Assembly: GCA_963677745.1 (NCBI GenBank)
Contig: OY782391.1
Location: 64,001 to 128,000, forward strand
DNA from: Candidatus Altimarinota bacterium
GTDB lineage: Bacteria; Patescibacteriota; Gracilibacteria; UBA1369
Direction: 5' to 3'
Length of the DNA: 64,000 bases
Part shown: one piece after another, positions 30,687-36,728 of the stretch
Layout: each line of letters starts with the position of its first letter
Numbering within the stretch: position 1 is the stretch's first letter
Position numbers and translations under genes: made by a program
The notes under the pieces: model-generated
Seen by the model: only the letters and a program-made list of their open reading frames with translations
Told to the model about the DNA's origin: nothing
Databases searched by the model: none

Positions 30687-30762
30687 GGGCCCTTAGCTCA
30701 GCTGGTAGAGCGCGGCATTCGCATTGCCGAGGTCGGGAGTTCGAGTCTCCTAGGGTCCACCA
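30687..30762 (+). tRNA. tRNA-Ala (anticodon CGC)
   Basis: Cloverleaf, G3-U70 pair, anticodon loop TT-CGC-AT, GTTCGA T-loop, encoded CCA. Confidence 0.97.
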
Positions 30763-33782: not shown

Positions 33783-34547
33783 GTGGCTAAAACAGAACAA
33801 ATGGCTAAAGATAAAGATCAAAACCCGGGATACCTGATCAATTACCTGGAAAAAAAACTACAGGGAAGCCGTCTAAACTACGGGCAACAGAAAAAACTGC
33901 TTCTGGCCGCCGATATATCATTGAATGTAATAATTGTGGTGGTATTGGTGGTATTGATGAGAACTTTTATCATGACTCCTTTTCAGGTCTATGGCATTTC
34001 AATGTGTAACACACTTAATTACATTAATGATAAGTGCCAGGATGGTTATGGAGACTACATAATTATCAATAAAAGCTCATATCTGCGCCTGCCCGGCTGG
34101 ACCGTCGGTACTCCCCAGCGTGGTGATATCATTGTTTTCCGCCCACCGCACAACAATCATGAGTTTTACATAAAAAGAGTAATCGGGCTTCCCGGAGAAA
34201 CGGTCAAACTGATTGACGGTTATGTTTACATTTTTAGCGATAAATATCCTCAGGGCATCAAACTGGATGAGCCATACCTGTCAGATGATAATAATGGCAG
34301 TACCTTTGCCACCGGCGGAATTAATGAATTTACTGTCCCGGCAGATCAATATTTTGTGCTGGGAGATAATCGCAAACGCAGTTCCGATTCCAGACTTTGT
34401 TTCAAGGAAAGCTCCGCCAGCCCCAATTGCGGTGAAAAAGGAGCGTCTTCTTTTCTGACCATGGACAACATTGAAGGAAAAGCAGCTCTCGTTTTATGGC
34501 CCAGACCCGAAATAATCTACAGTCACGAGTATCCCCAAACGGTCTAG
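33783..34547 (+). CDS. lepB: Signal peptidase I
   Basis: GISM, RGDIIVF, YIKRVIGLPGE, GDNR..S.DSR. Confidence 0.95.
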   Translation: MAKTEQMAKDKDQNPGYLINYLEKKLQGSRLNYGQQKKLLLAADISLNVIIVVVLVVLMRTFIMTPFQVYGISMCNTLNYINDKCQDGYGDYIIINKSSYLRLPGWTVGTPQRGDIIVFRPPHNNHEFYIKRVIGLPGETVKLIDGYVYIFSDKYPQGIKLDEPYLSDDNNGSTFATGGINEFTVPADQYFVLGDNRKRSSDSRLCFKESSASPNCGEKGASSFLTMDNIEGKAALVLWPRPEIIYSHEYPQTV

Positions 34548-34670
34548 TATTATCGTATTTCGCCCCATTTTCCCCTTTCTCACAAGCAATTTAGGGTAAT
34601 TTTTGAATAATTCGTGGTTTTCCTCTTCAGACAGGGAAAATGGCACTTTTATATTTTGGCATCAAAAATC

Positions 34671-34699
34671 TTGACAAAACCTCGGTTTGTTGGTAAGTT
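34671..34699 (+). promoter_or_regulatory. Sigma70 promoter of GC-rich cassette
   Basis: TTGACA-17-TAAGTT with extended TG. Confidence 0.65.
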
Positions 34700-34733
34700 G
34701 ATACCTTCTAAAAAATTGCTGTTACTGTTTAGC

Positions 34734-35040
34734 GCTCATTGAAAAACAGGGAAAGCAGAGAGTAAATTGCCTAAACTTGCAATCGAATGCCAGTTCATGT
34801 AACGACACCATCCCTCCCCAAAGTAAGATGTTGTTTCCTGGCGTTCCGTTGTCTTTAGGCAGTTAGCCTCTCTGTTTTCGTCACTGCGGCTCACACTTCT
34901 GTGCTGCCGCAATTTCATAAGTTAAGTCCGTCCTGGACTCTCATAGTCGGACGGATTGCATGTTTCTGGGAAGTGAGCCCACGGCTTTACACCCACCAAA
35001 GACTCAAGCCCGCCTCCTCCGGCGGTACAATAGGAGGACA
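34734..35040 (+). ncRNA. Structured 5' leader RNA of unknown class
   Basis: boxA-like GCTCATTGAAAA; rod 34751-34879; hairpins 34885-34911, 34925-34957, 35010-35025. Confidence 0.55.
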
Positions 35041-35066
35041 ATGTGCATGCCGAGGAGGATAACACG

Positions 35067-36053
35067 ATGACGCAATCCAATTTTGGACCCGGAATGTTCG
35101 GACAACCTCAACCTACTGCCCAGGTTCAGCCTGGCCTGCCCGTGCCCCCTGCGCCACCCGCACCGCAACCGCAGCCCACGTTCGGAGGCCCGCCTGCGCC
35201 TACTGCGCAGCAGGCGGTGGGGCAGCCTCTGCCTCAGATTGCTCCCCCCGCCGGTCCGGTTCAACCCGGCCAGCAGGGTGGACAGCAGTTCGCGCAGCAG
35301 CCCGGCCAGCCTCAGCCGCAGTACCAGCCGCCCCCGCGGGCACGCAGCCGCCTGGGCTGGCTGATGGCGCTGTTGGCATTGATTGGCGCGGCCATCGTGG
35401 CGGCCATCATGCTCGGGCCGGGATGCAATTCTGCTCCCCCGCCCCCGCCCGGACCGTCCACGCCGCCGTCAGCCTACCTGACTGAGCCAGAGGCGGTGGG
35501 AAGCTCCCTGTGCCAGACCGTCCTTGCCGGAAAGCAGGCGGTCAACTGGTACATGGTCTTCACCTCGCTCGAGGCTCGCCAGACCTACGCAGCACGTCTG
35601 TGCGTAGGACCTGGGGGACGCTTCCAGGTGGCCGACAACGCCAAGATCGTCGGGCAGAGCGTGTACATCCGCGAAGGCGGGCACGACTCTGTCGGCACGA
35701 TCGACACGAAGTACAAGCTGAGCGACGCGTTCGCTGGGAAGCTGTACGCCCGTGTGGTGGGCAAGGACGGTTCGCAGTTCGGGTTCGCCAACCCTCTGCT
35801 GGTGTACGTCGAGAGCGGCAATGCCTTCGACGACTGCAGCCAGTACAAGGGCATGACGGAGCCGGCCGCCGATGACATGGTGGCCTGGCAGATCTGGTGG
35901 CGCTGCAACTTCGGGGACCGCAAGGGCCCCAAGGGAGACCGTGGCCCCGCCGGACCCCGAGGTCCGAAGGGAGATACGGGCCCCCAGGGTTCCGCGGCTC
36001 CTTCGGCCCTGCCGCCGATTGCCCCTGTGGATGTCGACACCAACTCGCCGTAA
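35067..36053 (+). CDS. GC-rich Pro/Gln-rich single-TM protein with short collagen-like repeat
   Basis: AGGAGG 8 nt before ATG 35067; TM WLMALLALIGAAIVAAIML; GPKGDRGPAGPRGPKGDTGPQG. Confidence 0.8.
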   Translation: MTQSNFGPGMFGQPQPTAQVQPGLPVPPAPPAPQPQPTFGGPPAPTAQQAVGQPLPQIAPPAGPVQPGQQGGQQFAQQPGQPQPQYQPPPRARSRLGWLMALLALIGAAIVAAIMLGPGCNSAPPPPPGPSTPPSAYLTEPEAVGSSLCQTVLAGKQAVNWYMVFTSLEARQTYAARLCVGPGGRFQVADNAKIVGQSVYIREGGHDSVGTIDTKYKLSDAFAGKLYARVVGKDGSQFGFANPLLVYVESGNAFDDCSQYKGMTEPAADDMVAWQIWWRCNFGDRKGPKGDRGPAGPRGPKGDTGPQGSAAPSALPPIAPVDVDTNSP

Positions 36054-36265
36054 GGCAGAAGGTGCACGCACAGTCCACCCGGGCACACTTACCGACATCA
36101 ACTCGCCGCAAGGCTCGCAGATGATGTCCAAAACTCACGGGGGCGCGGTGTAGCGGCAAGCGCGAACCTCCCCCCATGCGGCCCGTCTACGCCGCGTCCC
36201 CGTGACTATCTCAATTCAGCTACCCGCCCCCCGAAAGGAGGCAATGACGAAAACAGAAGAGGAAT
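36027..36265 (+). ncRNA. Structured 3' trailer RNA
   Basis: Tandem GNRA hairpins, 19-bp stem 36135-36205, segment complementary to the 5' leader. Confidence 0.5.
36036..36114 (+). repeat. 21-nt direct repeat (19/21 identical)
   Basis: GACACCAACTCGCCGTAAGGC (36036-36056) and GACATCAACTCGCCGCAAGGC (36094-36114). Confidence 0.8.
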
Positions 36266-36266
36266 A

Positions 36267-36306
36267 GCCCCAGGTCTACCGCATGGTATGACCCGGGGTT
36301 TTCCTT
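36267..36306 (+). terminator. Intrinsic terminator-like hairpin
   Basis: GCCCC-A-GGTC-TACC-GCAT-GGTA-T-GACC-C-GGGGT followed by TTTCCTT. Confidence 0.55.
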
Positions 36307-36356
36307 ATGTACTTTAAATTCCATCGTCAAATTCTGATCGGCAGATCTGCAAAAAA

Positions 36357-36728
36357 TCAGTCCTTGGCCACCAGATAAAATTCAATCATTGTTACCGCTG
36401 CGATCAAAAGCAGTCCCGACCACCAGGTCAAAACTCCCAACAACTGAAACAGCAGGCATCCCAGCGTAATCAATGTCAGTAAAATCCCCTGCCTCAGTGA
36501 GACATTAATATGATCGTAATATATTTCATTTTTATTGAACCAGACCCTTATATAAAAACCGACAATCGTAAAGGTGCAGGTTAACGCAAAAAACAGACTG
36601 ATGAAAAACATCGCCAGTGCCAAGCCGGTGGAAGCCCAAACATCCAGTTTATCAATCACCAGATAAAAGGCCAGCCAGCTGATCAGCGCGGCCACTCCAA
36701 TTATCAAGATGTATCTTTGGTGTGTCAT
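36357..36728 (-). CDS. Four-TM membrane protein
   Basis: Hydrophobic, SLRQG motif. Confidence 0.75.
   Translation of the reverse strand: MTHQRYILIIGVAALISWLAFYLVIDKLDVWASTGLALAMFFISLFFALTCTFTIVGFYIRVWFNKNEIYYDHINVSLRQGILLTLITLGCLLFQLLGVLTWWSGLLLIAAVTMIEFYLVAKD

Follow-up and report, generated by a model that had tools for sequence, protein, structure and literature searches.

One gene in the window (the whole stretch of DNA analyzed, 64,000 nucleotides) is far richer in G+C than its neighbors and is preceded by a canonical Shine-Dalgarno (SD) sequence. The question raised by the locus is whether such a gene is a foreign insert or a native part of the chromosome. The original prediction regarded it as built rather than as a passive remnant of horizontal gene transfer, and proposed an mRNA exported to a high-GC partner cell, an unknown RNA element, or a domesticated foreign gene. 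Hereafter, the genome studied is called G000, the unit is 34671-36306, and the gene is 35067-36053.

The base counts of the original prediction are exact on recounting (46/60, 37/60, and 18/60 G+C on lines 35281, 35701, and 36481). The GC content is 67.7% in the gene and 61.9% in the unit, while that of the flanks is 41.0% and 43.3%. The region 34950-36300 has 66% G+C between flanks of 41-43%, the 300-nt profile of the locus peaks at 0.72, and the sequence between the stop codon and the following gene has 57% GC. The G000 genome (1,335,835 bp) has 47.4% GC with a standard deviation of 0.046 among 500-nt windows; the chromosome, described beforehand as AT-rich, is therefore so to a moderate degree only. 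Four sharp GC islands are found in the genome, and the top 500-nt window (0.704) belongs to this locus. GC1, GC2, and GC3 of the gene are 0.70, 0.56, and 0.77, respectively, each approximately 3.4 standard deviations above the means of 997 long ORFs (0.53, 0.37, and 0.53). In composition, the unit deviates from its host genome as a genomic island does. Among the proteins encoded on the other islands, Myxococcota-type relatives and MopE motifs are seen.

The positions of the features in the unit and its flanks are listed in Table 1. The predicted sigma-70-type promoter is present in the sequence, and TG precedes the −10 element within the 17-nt spacer. Similar sites (TTGACA-N17-19-TAnnnT) lie 35-55 nt upstream of the leader motif R1, described below, at most related loci. 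A strict consensus promoter scan does not list the TTGACA/TAAGTT site, because TAAGTT shares only three of six positions with TATAAT. AGGAGG is found at 35032 in addition to the SD at 35053. The SD-poor background against which these sites had been pointed out is approximately confirmed. An SD core of at least 4 nt at −18 to −4 occurs at 6.5% of 996 long-ORF starts compared with 12% in the control window, and AGGAGG at 4/996 compared with 2/996, values that are rough because the starts taken in the survey are those of the longest ORFs. The 3′ end of the 16S rRNA of G000 retains CCUCC, the anti-SD sequence, and SD sequences are not enriched genome-wide. SD-like sites precede five of the six GC-island genes in this SD-poor genome.

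Table 1. Features of the unit and its flanks in G000 (window positions)
Feature	Position	Strand	Basis or remark
Left flank, signal peptidase I (lepB)	33783-34547	+	PF10502, E 1.7e-38; syntenic in 29 loci
Sigma-70-type promoter	34671-34699	+	TTGACA 34671-34676, 17-nt spacer, TAAGTT 34694-34699; direct reading
R1 leader RNA motif	34724-34889	+	covariance-model match, 101.1 bits
Conserved 5′ box CTCATTGAAAAAC, family consensus YCTTTGAMA	34735-34747	+	alignments
P1 5′ strand AAGCAGAGAG	34753-34762	+	pairs with 34868-34877
P2 5′ strand	34765-34776	+	pairs with 34853-34864; two-sided changes in 7/12 pairs
P2 3′ strand	34853-34864	+	covariation, RNAalifold, fold
P1 3′ strand CUCUCUGUUU	34868-34877	+	covariation, RNAalifold, fold
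SD-occluding hairpin (predicted)	35013-35058	+	CCUCCUC 35013-35019 pairs with GAGGAGG 35052-35058
Shine-Dalgarno AGGAGG	35053-35058	+	8 nt upstream of ATG at 35067; direct reading
CDS, 328 aa	35067-36053	+	ORF, homologues; GC 67.7%, GC3 0.77
Transmembrane helix, residues about 96-118	35352-35420	+	RARSR just before; read from translation
Extracellular Cys-containing β-rich domain, residues 146-283	35502-35915	+	alignments; AF2 pLDDT 88.7
Eight G-X-Y triplets, collagen-like tail	35925-35996	+	PF01391 E 0.0063, under cut-off
GC-rich structured 3′ UTR (predicted)	36054-36306	+	z −4.9
Trailer box AAAACAGAAGAG, P1-5′-strand-like	36250-36261	+	comparison with related loci
Terminator hairpin AGCCCCAGG...CCCGGGGUUUUCC	36266-36306	+	fold; conserved with G254
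Right flank, conserved 123-aa membrane protein	36357-36728	−	in 34/36 family genomes; syntenic with lepB

The leader contains the motif R1, which is composed of a box, helix P1 (AAGCAGAGAG/CUCUCUGYUU), an asymmetric loop, helix P2, and a variable distal hairpin. A covariance model of R1 was built from 13 loci of the chromosomal slot described below. In the build alignment, 92.4% of the cells are paired, compared with 39-50% when the partner strand is slid, and nine pairs are changed on both sides. P1 and P2 are recovered independently by RNAalifold. In 24 loci outside model building, 91.5% of the cells are paired and 17 of 22 pairs are changed on both sides, in an alignment fitted to the model. 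G-U and U-G intermediates are common on the sense strand (e.g., CG:17 UG:16 UA:6), consistent with R1 acting as RNA. R1 has the covariation-supported conserved structure that characterizes cis-regulatory leaders. From sequence-based prediction, its placement would also be that of a leader: a promoter-like site lies at the upstream distance given above, and an ORF follows 40-270 nt further along that strand. A search of the whole window with Rfam 15 at the gathering score gives a single tRNA and no family for the leader or trailer. Six chance-level matches are obtained for 34400-36500 at E ≤ 10, and only an lncRNA model (8.6 bits) among them touches the start of R1. R1 is a structured, putative 5′ leader RNA not described before and has no Rfam family.

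Two other readings of the motif were rejected. The 5′ box can be scanned as an internal promoter (TTGAAA-18-TAAATT), which is rejected because the spacing between the box and P1 varies. As a repeat or mobile element, R1 would be expected to be similar within a genome; same-genome R1 units have no nucleotide similarity in six of the seven genomes compared, and the only match, in G300, covers 109 nt at 83% on opposite strands. The leader blocks occur once in the G000 genome. The unknown RNA element suggested originally is partly borne out: a new covarying motif exists, with the behavior of a 5′ UTR element rather than of a mobile or autonomous one.

R1 is found at E ≤ 0.01 in 30 of 36 genomes of the family. 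In the order sample, it occurs in 16/22 genomes within the family versus 3/128 outside, and it is largely confined to this Peribacteria family. In related genomes, R1 also leads further GC-rich orphan genes, which occupy conserved loci elsewhere. The products of other R1-led genes include lipoproteins with lipoboxes, and a Pfam search of ten of them gives nothing beyond one sub-threshold YqjK match. A GC jump of at least +0.10 accompanies 29 of the 36 R1 matches, versus 3.1% of the positions in the G000 genome, and is also seen at 17 of 23 matches outside model building; the other seven of the 36 have no clear jump. The host genomes of R1 units span 28-50% GC, and the untranslated trailers of the units are GC-enriched as well (0.45-0.64). 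Three more instances come from metagenomes, where a tandem pair of R1 units is seen on one contig, and the R1 pattern has no match in viral contigs. G000 itself has a single R1. Its other three GC islands have none, giving only weak R1-like matches (E 0.19 and 0.58). The expectation that GC-outlier genes share a leader therefore holds across the family but not for these three islands.

The leader and trailer are computed to be strongly folded, in line with the original prediction. The minimum free energy of the leader (34704-35075) is −132.5 compared with −99.9 ± 5.2 for shuffled sequences (z −6.2), and the trailer (36054-36312) reaches z −4.9. The pairing that occludes the SD is predicted in both the minimum free energy and centroid structures, of the full leader as well as of a 76-nt piece. 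In the congener G345, the SD hairpin is formed by GCUUCCUCCG/CGGAGGAAGU, a compensated pair (z −5.0). This hairpin is predicted in three of the six slot loci folded (G000, G345, and G321; not in G333, G270, and G277), suggesting that the expression platform is not conserved. At the other end, the trailer box is identical in G333 and G254 and has one change in G321, and related boxes precede the terminators of G345, G270, G318, and G315. The terminator hairpin is not listed by a simple terminator scan. Selection for extra mRNA structure within the ORF was considered and rejected, since its z value (−2.3) is not distinctive compared with that of lepB (−1.7); structure in the coding region is no greater than composition predicts.

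The unit lies in a fixed slot between lepB and the gene for the 123-aa membrane protein. Among 29 loci, the slot is occupied by an R1-led GC-rich gene in 16 cases, by a normal-GC lipoprotein gene in 8, and by nothing in 5. The GC-rich slot genes in these 16 of 29 family genomes are SD-led and encode membrane or secreted proteins. The whole set of promoter, structured leader, SD, GC-rich ORF, trailer box, and terminator recurs at the slot in related genomes, which upholds the view of a built cassette rather than a passive remnant. In the flank-gene tree, a 100/100 clade of ten genomes has R1 and a GC-rich gene throughout, and the slot states require 4 changes on the tree versus 9.9 when shuffled. 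Synonymous sites are saturated (pS 0.69 in the slot gene and 0.6-0.87 in the flanks). Despite this saturation, the slot gene keeps a GC3 of 0.57-0.92, while that of the flanks is not high. Inheritance of the slot is not simple, either. The G000 ectodomain resembles that of G254, a member of another genus (51%), whereas the closer relatives G333 and G345 have a second ectodomain type with 21-23% identity to that of G000. The C-terminal tails are mosaic. This discordance between slot protein and flanks, together with the mosaic tails, suggests some cassette exchange rather than strict vertical descent. The flanks are 65-77% identical, and the slot enclosed by them is unalignable in nucleotide sequence; the assemblies of G308 and G336 break there. 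When the GC-rich slot family and the slot lipoproteins of normal GC are compared as profiles, the probability is 1.3%, so that the two slot types are not shown to be homologous.

No sign of mobility or of a donor is seen around the unit. As stated in the original prediction, no transposase or integrase is found among its ORFs. No mobility gene, tRNA target, or flanking direct repeat is present in or beside it, the nearest tRNA being 4 kb away at 30687, and PF00078 reverse transcriptase, which would point to a diversity-generating retroelement, has no match in the G000 genome. Protein homologues are found in 7 of 201 genomes of the order sample, all inside the family, and in the class sample only G000 is convincing. 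Protein-based scans of viral and metagenome contigs give none. Neither a high-GC donor nor a high-GC relative is found in the homology searches, including the order and class samples and the viral and metagenome contigs. The patchy presence and donor lineage of an island are likewise not observed, since the slot states are clustered and the clade of ten is fully occupied.

The product contains 15% Pro and 9.5% Gln and has a single transmembrane helix. From the N terminus, a Pro/Gln-rich part, the helix, a Pro-rich stalk, a β-rich ectodomain with four Cys residues, and the G-X-Y triplets follow one another. Topology read from the sequence obeys the positive-inside rule, which places the four conserved Cys residues outside. 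The composition, helix, and triplets are as the original prediction had described them, but membership of the collagen family is not reached: the only Pfam match, Collagen PF01391, scores 16.7 bits against a gathering cut-off of 27.2. The homologues P0002 and P0003 share 45-51% identity across the ectodomain. A search of 1.84e9 representatives gives 23 relatives at E ≤ 0.001, and all 20 sequences read have a like architecture. The dN/dS ratio is approximately 0.23 against the G254 homologue and approximately 0.23-0.36 overall, indicating purifying selection. Foldseek finds nothing for a first, poor AF2 model (pLDDT 69) and nothing at E ≤ 0.001 for the second model, that of the ectodomain (pLDDT 88.7). 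VIA-align against 48,161 chains gives a best Z of 2.6 for the ectodomain, and the best ESM Atlas score (0.83, collagen clusters) is uninformative. The ectodomain is confidently modeled and its predicted structure has no PDB relative, though this lack of a match does not prove a new fold. Judging from its predicted layout, the product is built like a membrane-anchored surface protein of the producer itself, and it plausibly serves contact with the environment or a host. Collagen-like proteins such as Scl of streptococci and BclA of Bacillus are also anchored and have G-X-Y triplets beside a globular domain; the present protein differs in having only eight triplets, below the Pfam cut-off, and in having relatives with a predicted coiled-coil-like tail instead.

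We consider it probable that 34671-36306 is one native Peribacteria transcription unit, in which a vertically kept, fast-evolving surface gene belongs to an R1-marked set and is under R1-linked control. The fixed slot and the sharing of R1 with other GC-rich orphan genes point to a native, long-kept gene class, not to a recent insert or an error. Transcription would start from the sigma-70-like promoter and give an untranslated leader about 370 nt long. R1 would make up the first 166 nt of this leader, and in its last hairpin CCUCCUC is predicted to pair with the SD. R1 may be a cis-acting sensor of a ligand, a protein, or temperature, and in G000 it would set whether the SD-occluding hairpin forms, giving translational control. 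The P1-like boxes at the 5′ and 3′ ends may affect transcript stability. The rest of the SD-poor genome appears to use unstructured-leader initiation, and the SD would be needed here because a GC-rich structured mRNA presumably cannot use that mode. The gene would then be one member of the R1-marked set, with high GC as a maintained property of R1-led units. A more specific version, that high GC is actively maintained along the R1-led transcribed stretch, trailer included, by a leader-linked, locus-specific process or by selection on the RNA, is unlikely. In the first case, base composition might be driven by recombination or gene conversion for which R1 and the P1-like trailer box serve as anchors; in the second, the mRNAs might be long-lived, packaged, or exported, outside the ordinary translation of the producer.

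ROSE and fourU thermometers and translational riboswitches are 5′ leaders that occlude the Shine-Dalgarno sequence. R1 resembles them in being structured and covarying, in lying directly behind a promoter, and in heading several unrelated genes, and an anti-SD/SD hairpin is predicted downstream of it in G000. It differs in that it has no Rfam match and no evident ligand or pocket, and in that the occluding platform is confined to half of the folded loci. Unlike in riboswitches, conservation lies in the helix sequence (P1), while the tip is variable; judged from the alignment, this pattern looks more like that of a protein-binding or RNA-pairing site. We know of no riboswitch regulon with a shared unusual base composition, whereas the R1-led genes share one.

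A rather unlikely alternative is recurrent import or exchange, in which R1 loci are landing sites for ORFs from an outside GC-rich pool (a plasmid, a phage, higher-GC Peribacteria, or a host), with R1 and the trailer/terminator as recombination anchors; high GC would then mirror the pool rather than local maintenance. The discordance of allele type with the flank tree, the mosaic tails, and the unalignable slot between similar flanks are all consistent with this, as are the two assemblies broken at the slot and the alternative ORF branches in run X5. So are the Myxococcota-type relatives and MopE motifs of the other islands, and the SD-like sites before the GC-island genes. Hypervariable surface loci typically lie below the genome GC, whereas the GC of the slot is far above it and the slot has a conserved leader RNA. 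The slot otherwise resembles such loci (capsule, O-antigen, and pilin-type), sharing a fixed position, conserved flanks, mosaic unalignable alleles, a surface-exposed product, and assemblies that break there; a hypervariable gene in a Gracilibacterium is described in PMC6851277. In line with import, a Peribacteria lineage with 58.5% GC exists (PMC4736985). Against import, homologues occur only in the family context in the order and class samples, the viral and metagenome scans give no protein match, and the R1 pattern is absent from the viral contigs. On the tree, the slot state clusters and covers a whole clade, the cassettes of one genome lack nucleotide similarity as well as flanking integrases, transposases, and repeats, and no pool at 65-75% GC is known.

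It is very improbable that R1 is a DNA-level recombination site, an attC-like folded single strand, and that the units are site-specific cassettes. Like integron cassettes, the R1 units are mostly orphan ORFs of odd composition and heterogeneous cargo, each with an imperfect hairpin of 100-170 nt having conserved outer arms and a variable center. The architecture of R1 agrees with attC in its conserved outer inverted repeat, its spacer, its inner helix, and a tip that is variable (40-90 nt), a P1-like direct repeat bounds the cassette at its 3′ end in one clade, and two units stand in tandem on one metagenome contig. However, the R1 hairpin precedes the ORF and follows a promoter of its own, the distance to which is fixed for most copies. 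The wobble pairs favor sense RNA, being C-A mismatches on the other strand. Most loci are single-unit and syntenic across genera, and neither an integrase within or adjoining the unit nor a reverse transcriptase in the genome is found.

A single recent transfer from a high-GC donor, as a genomic islet or a domesticated gene, is hardly credible. The sharp compositional edges, the canonical SD, and the GC3 far above the genome mean would suit it, but GC-rich relatives, some of them distant, occupy the same slot across a deep clade with saturated synonymous sites. The unit has a native, conserved promoter and leader, mobility genes are absent, and the search for taxonomic spread gives no donor, so that the domesticated foreign gene considered in the original prediction is not upheld.

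Its main proposal, an epibiont mRNA tuned in GC, codons, and SD for a high-GC partner, in which R1 would signal export or handling, is unsupported, though not disproved, and we regard it as extremely unlikely. Indirectly in its favor, a leader-marked class of GC-rich SD-led transcription units does exist, and the GC enrichment reaches the untranslated trailer. Nevertheless, the ribosome of the producer carries the anti-SD itself, the product has the layout of its own surface proteins and is under purifying selection, R1-led lipoproteins need the secretion path of the producer, and no high-GC donor is found; we know of no precedent for an exported mRNA of such a kind. An assembly chimera or mis-binned insert, suggested by the sharp GC step and by the breakage of some related assemblies in GC-rich stretches, is practically negligible, because three contigs, one in each of three of the four runs examined (two studies), cross 34300-36700 and both junctions with 0 differences (5-70 kb, a different assembler, possibly derived from the source samples), and the architecture is repeated in 15 other family genomes and two metagenome contigs. 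Run X5 has minor alternative branches within the ORF.

Almost nothing is known of how CPR bacteria, which are uncultured, build their surfaces and make contact with hosts. The locus provides a new, well-supported structured RNA nearly limited to one CPR family. It also defines a set of fast-evolving orphan surface proteins and small helical proteins that is apparently controlled through R1. The locus-specific GC anomaly has outlasted the expected amelioration, which challenges the routine reading of a GC island as recent horizontal gene transfer.

The GC island around the slot gene is real and sharp. In 300-nt windows, the GC content is about 0.43 at 34650, reaches 0.72 over 35100-35400 and is down to 0.40 by 36300. 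The G+C counts reported for three lines in the original prediction were exact on recount, and the gene is, as predicted, far richer in GC (67.7%) than its flanks (41.0% and 43.3%), whereas the chromosome, a single contig of 1,335,835 bp with 47.4% GC, is AT-rich only moderately. All codon positions contribute (GC1/2/3 of 0.70/0.56/0.77 versus averages of 0.53/0.37/0.53 for 997 long ORFs), each being about 3.4 sd higher. Four sharp islands above approximately 62% GC are present genome-wide, and the richest 500-nt window lies in the slot-gene island.

An assembly chimera is contradicted by contigs produced with a different assembler from four public runs of two studies. In three of the four runs, one contig (5-70 kb) spans all of 34300-36700 with no differences, and the fourth is in fragments, with alternative branches of low depth at 35648 and 35891; since the runs may include the source samples, the agreement tests the assembly and not the biology. 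The alternative branches in the run X5, within the ectodomain-coding part, suggest that minor strains carry variants of this surface protein. The assemblies of two related genomes, G308 (L031) and G336 (L032), break exactly at the slot, where the GC-rich gene seems to hinder assembly.

Positions of the features. Coordinates are those of the window unless a genome, contig or locus is named.
Feature	Position	Strand	Details
R1 leader motif	34724-34889		
Box YCTTTGAMA	34735-34747		also at this position in 39 aligned hits (A5), 8-25 nt before P1
CCUCCUC of last leader hairpin	35013-19		predicted
GAGGAGG of last leader hairpin	35052-58		predicted
Slot gene	35067-36053	+	328 aa
Alternative branches in X5	35619-35648, 35891-35920		depth 4-5x vs ~30x
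Third AGGAGG	36236-36241		3' UTR, no ORF behind
Trailer box AACAGA(A)GAG	36250-36261		matching sites L014, L015, L016, L029, L030, L033, L017
GC island L001	genome 511851-516000		outside the window
GC island L002	genome 850051-852200		outside the window
GC island L003	genome 1307101-1311650		outside the window
Weak R1-like match	L003 1886-1938		E 0.19
Weak R1-like match	L001 1432-1515		E 0.58
R1 match	G336:C48:1-129		contig begins with it
Tandem R1 units	L068 1023-2842		a small TM protein (~200 aa) after each; GC moderately raised
CIRCE-like inverted repeats	L055 1195-1265		two, TTAGCAC...GTGCTAA

In the slot protein, a Pro/Gln-rich N-terminal region is followed by RARSR and a single TM helix; a Pro-rich stalk then leads to a domain of about 140 aa in which Cys are conserved, and eight G-X-Y triplets make up the tail, in agreement with the predicted Pro/Gln-rich TM protein with a collagen-like tail. 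A search of 5.8 billion proteins gave only two clear relatives. One of them, in an uncultured Candidatus Peribacteria MAG, occupies the same position between signal peptidase I (lepB) and a conserved 123-aa membrane protein, and its GC is again raised (0.56-0.62 versus 0.36-0.40). Among 1.84 billion representatives, a profile search gave 23 proteins at E <= 0.001; the 20 sequences examined, a set without three long proteins, share the architecture, usually with a coiled-coil-like tail replacing G-X-Y. The AlphaFold model of the domain (22 sequences; pLDDT 88.7) is beta-rich with terminal helices, and no similar solved structure was found by Foldseek at E <= 0.001 (best VIA Z 2.6).

The slot is conserved in the family. 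The 123-aa gene was detected in 34 of 36 family genomes, and 31 loci were fetched. lepB and the 123-aa gene bracket the slot at 29 loci, including the present one; three further loci are truncated at contig ends or have no lepB. Sixteen slots hold a GC-rich gene with the R1 leader (GC3 0.57-0.92; gap GC 2-23 points above the flanks), eight a normal-GC lipoprotein (GC3 0.27-0.39), and five are empty (gaps of 50-276 bp). On a tree built from both flanking proteins, the slot states need four changes versus 9.9 with shuffled labels, and a 100/100 clade of ten genomes has the GC-rich state throughout. Synonymous sites are saturated, with pS 0.69 for the slot gene between this genome and G254, a genome of another genus, and 0.6-0.87 for flanking genes, and the slot protein is under purifying selection (pN 0.34, dN/dS about 0.23). 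The conserved slot, the ten-genome clade and the saturated sites contradict a single recent horizontal transfer, and the saturation implies that the high GC3 is a maintained state and not a donor leftover, barring repeated replacement of the gene from a GC-rich pool. Such replacement has a fairly low probability. The ectodomain shares 51% identity with its G254 counterpart, while the closer relatives G333 and G345 have a second ectodomain type, and mosaicism is seen in the C-terminal tails; these sequence comparisons give signs of some exchange at the slot.

The leaders of this genome and G254 share identical blocks, single-copy in this genome and found again at 13 slot loci. They define R1, in which the box YCTTTGAMA, helix P1 (AAGCAGAGAG/CUCUCUGYUU), a small asymmetric loop, helix P2 and a distal hairpin of variable length follow in order. 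Although the box looks like a -35 hexamer, its spacing varies, which speaks against a promoter; a similar box lies 3' of the promoter of an 800-aa island gene (L002). When 13 sequences were aligned with MAFFT, 92.4% of cells were paired, versus 39-50% with the partner slid, and nine pairs changed on both sides. None of 500 shuffles reached the observed values on four of five measures; on the number of further pair types, 26 of 500 did. RNAalifold recovered P1 and P2 unaided. Among 24 hits outside model building, two-sided changes occur in 17 of 22 pairs and 91.5% of cells are paired, a value flattered by the fitting of the alignment to the model. The frequent G-U intermediates on the sense strand and a TTGACA-N17-19-TAnnnT site 35-55 nt 5' of most copies fit an RNA in the 5' UTR; an attC-like DNA site is unlikely. 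R1 is a new element: it has no match in Rfam, and a full-text literature search, including passages of PMC4736985 and PMC6851277, found no earlier report.

The covariance model finds one copy in this genome and up to five per genome in 30 of the 36 family genomes (E <= 0.01); among genomes sampled from the order, R1 is present in 16 of the 22 that belong to the family versus only 3 of 128 others. Metagenomes gave three more instances, including one contig with two tandem units. When 400 nt 5' of R1 are compared with 600 nt beginning 100 nt 3', GC rises by at least 0.10 at 29 of 36 scorable hits (17 of 23 outside model building), versus only 3.1% of positions in this genome; seven hits lack the jump. 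GC is raised as well in the 3' portion of the leader and in the untranslated trailer (0.45-0.64). No mRNA structure beyond that predicted from composition was found in the slot ORF, and no reverse transcriptase in the genome. The R1-led genes are unrelated orphans, including small acidic helical proteins, lipoproteins and TM proteins, with no Pfam family among them, and several have their own conserved slots across genera. Units within one genome lack nucleotide similarity in six of seven genomes compared (the sole match, in G300, is on opposite strands), and thus did not arise by recent copying of a mobile repeat. In a related genome, CIRCE-like repeats lie ahead of groES-groEL, directly 3' of an R1-led small helical-protein gene.

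The expectation that GC-outlier genes share the leader holds across the family and fails for the other three islands of this genome (L001-L003), where the covariance model found no R1. These islands (62-66% GC) encode secreted proteins or lipoproteins with GC3 of ~0.8, among them a large secreted 1303-aa protein with 25 MopE-type metal-binding motifs. The closest relatives of the 800-aa protein (55-56%) are on two large contigs, and its distant ones are Myxococcota/DUF4215 cysteine-rich repeat proteins. SD-like sites precede four of five genes in L001-L003. The weak R1-like matches in L003 and L001, on the right strand, just 3' of promoter-like sites and 5' of these two islands, could be degenerate relatives or chance. 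The three islands appear to be a class distinct from the R1-led genes, possibly horizontally acquired.

The predicted promoter (TTGACA-17-TAAGTT) and two AGGAGG sites are in place, and the leader and trailer, both proposed to be structured, fold far better than dinucleotide shuffles (z -6.2 and -4.9). The 16S rRNA 3' end, which the original prediction had proposed to check, retains CCUCC. The genome is SD-poor as described: SD-like cores precede 6.5% of 996 long-ORF starts versus 12% in a control window, without enrichment, these figures being rough since starts were set as the longest ORF. SD-like sites precede five of six genes in the GC islands. The proposal that the transcript is an mRNA exported to a partner cell received no direct support and is highly improbable. 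The SD of the slot gene is probably required, since the mode of initiation used in the rest of this genome is not open to a GC-rich structured mRNA.

In the last leader hairpin, CCUCCUC is predicted to pair with GAGGAGG. The folds show a compensated version in the congener G345 (z -5.0) and a weaker one in G321, and no such hairpin at three other slot loci. In the ten-genome clade, a box similar to the 5' strand of P1 lies immediately 5' of the slot-gene terminator, and this box could base-pair with the 3' strand of P1 in the leader or bind the same factor. We propose that R1 is a cis-acting sensor, which in this genome would govern access to the SD.
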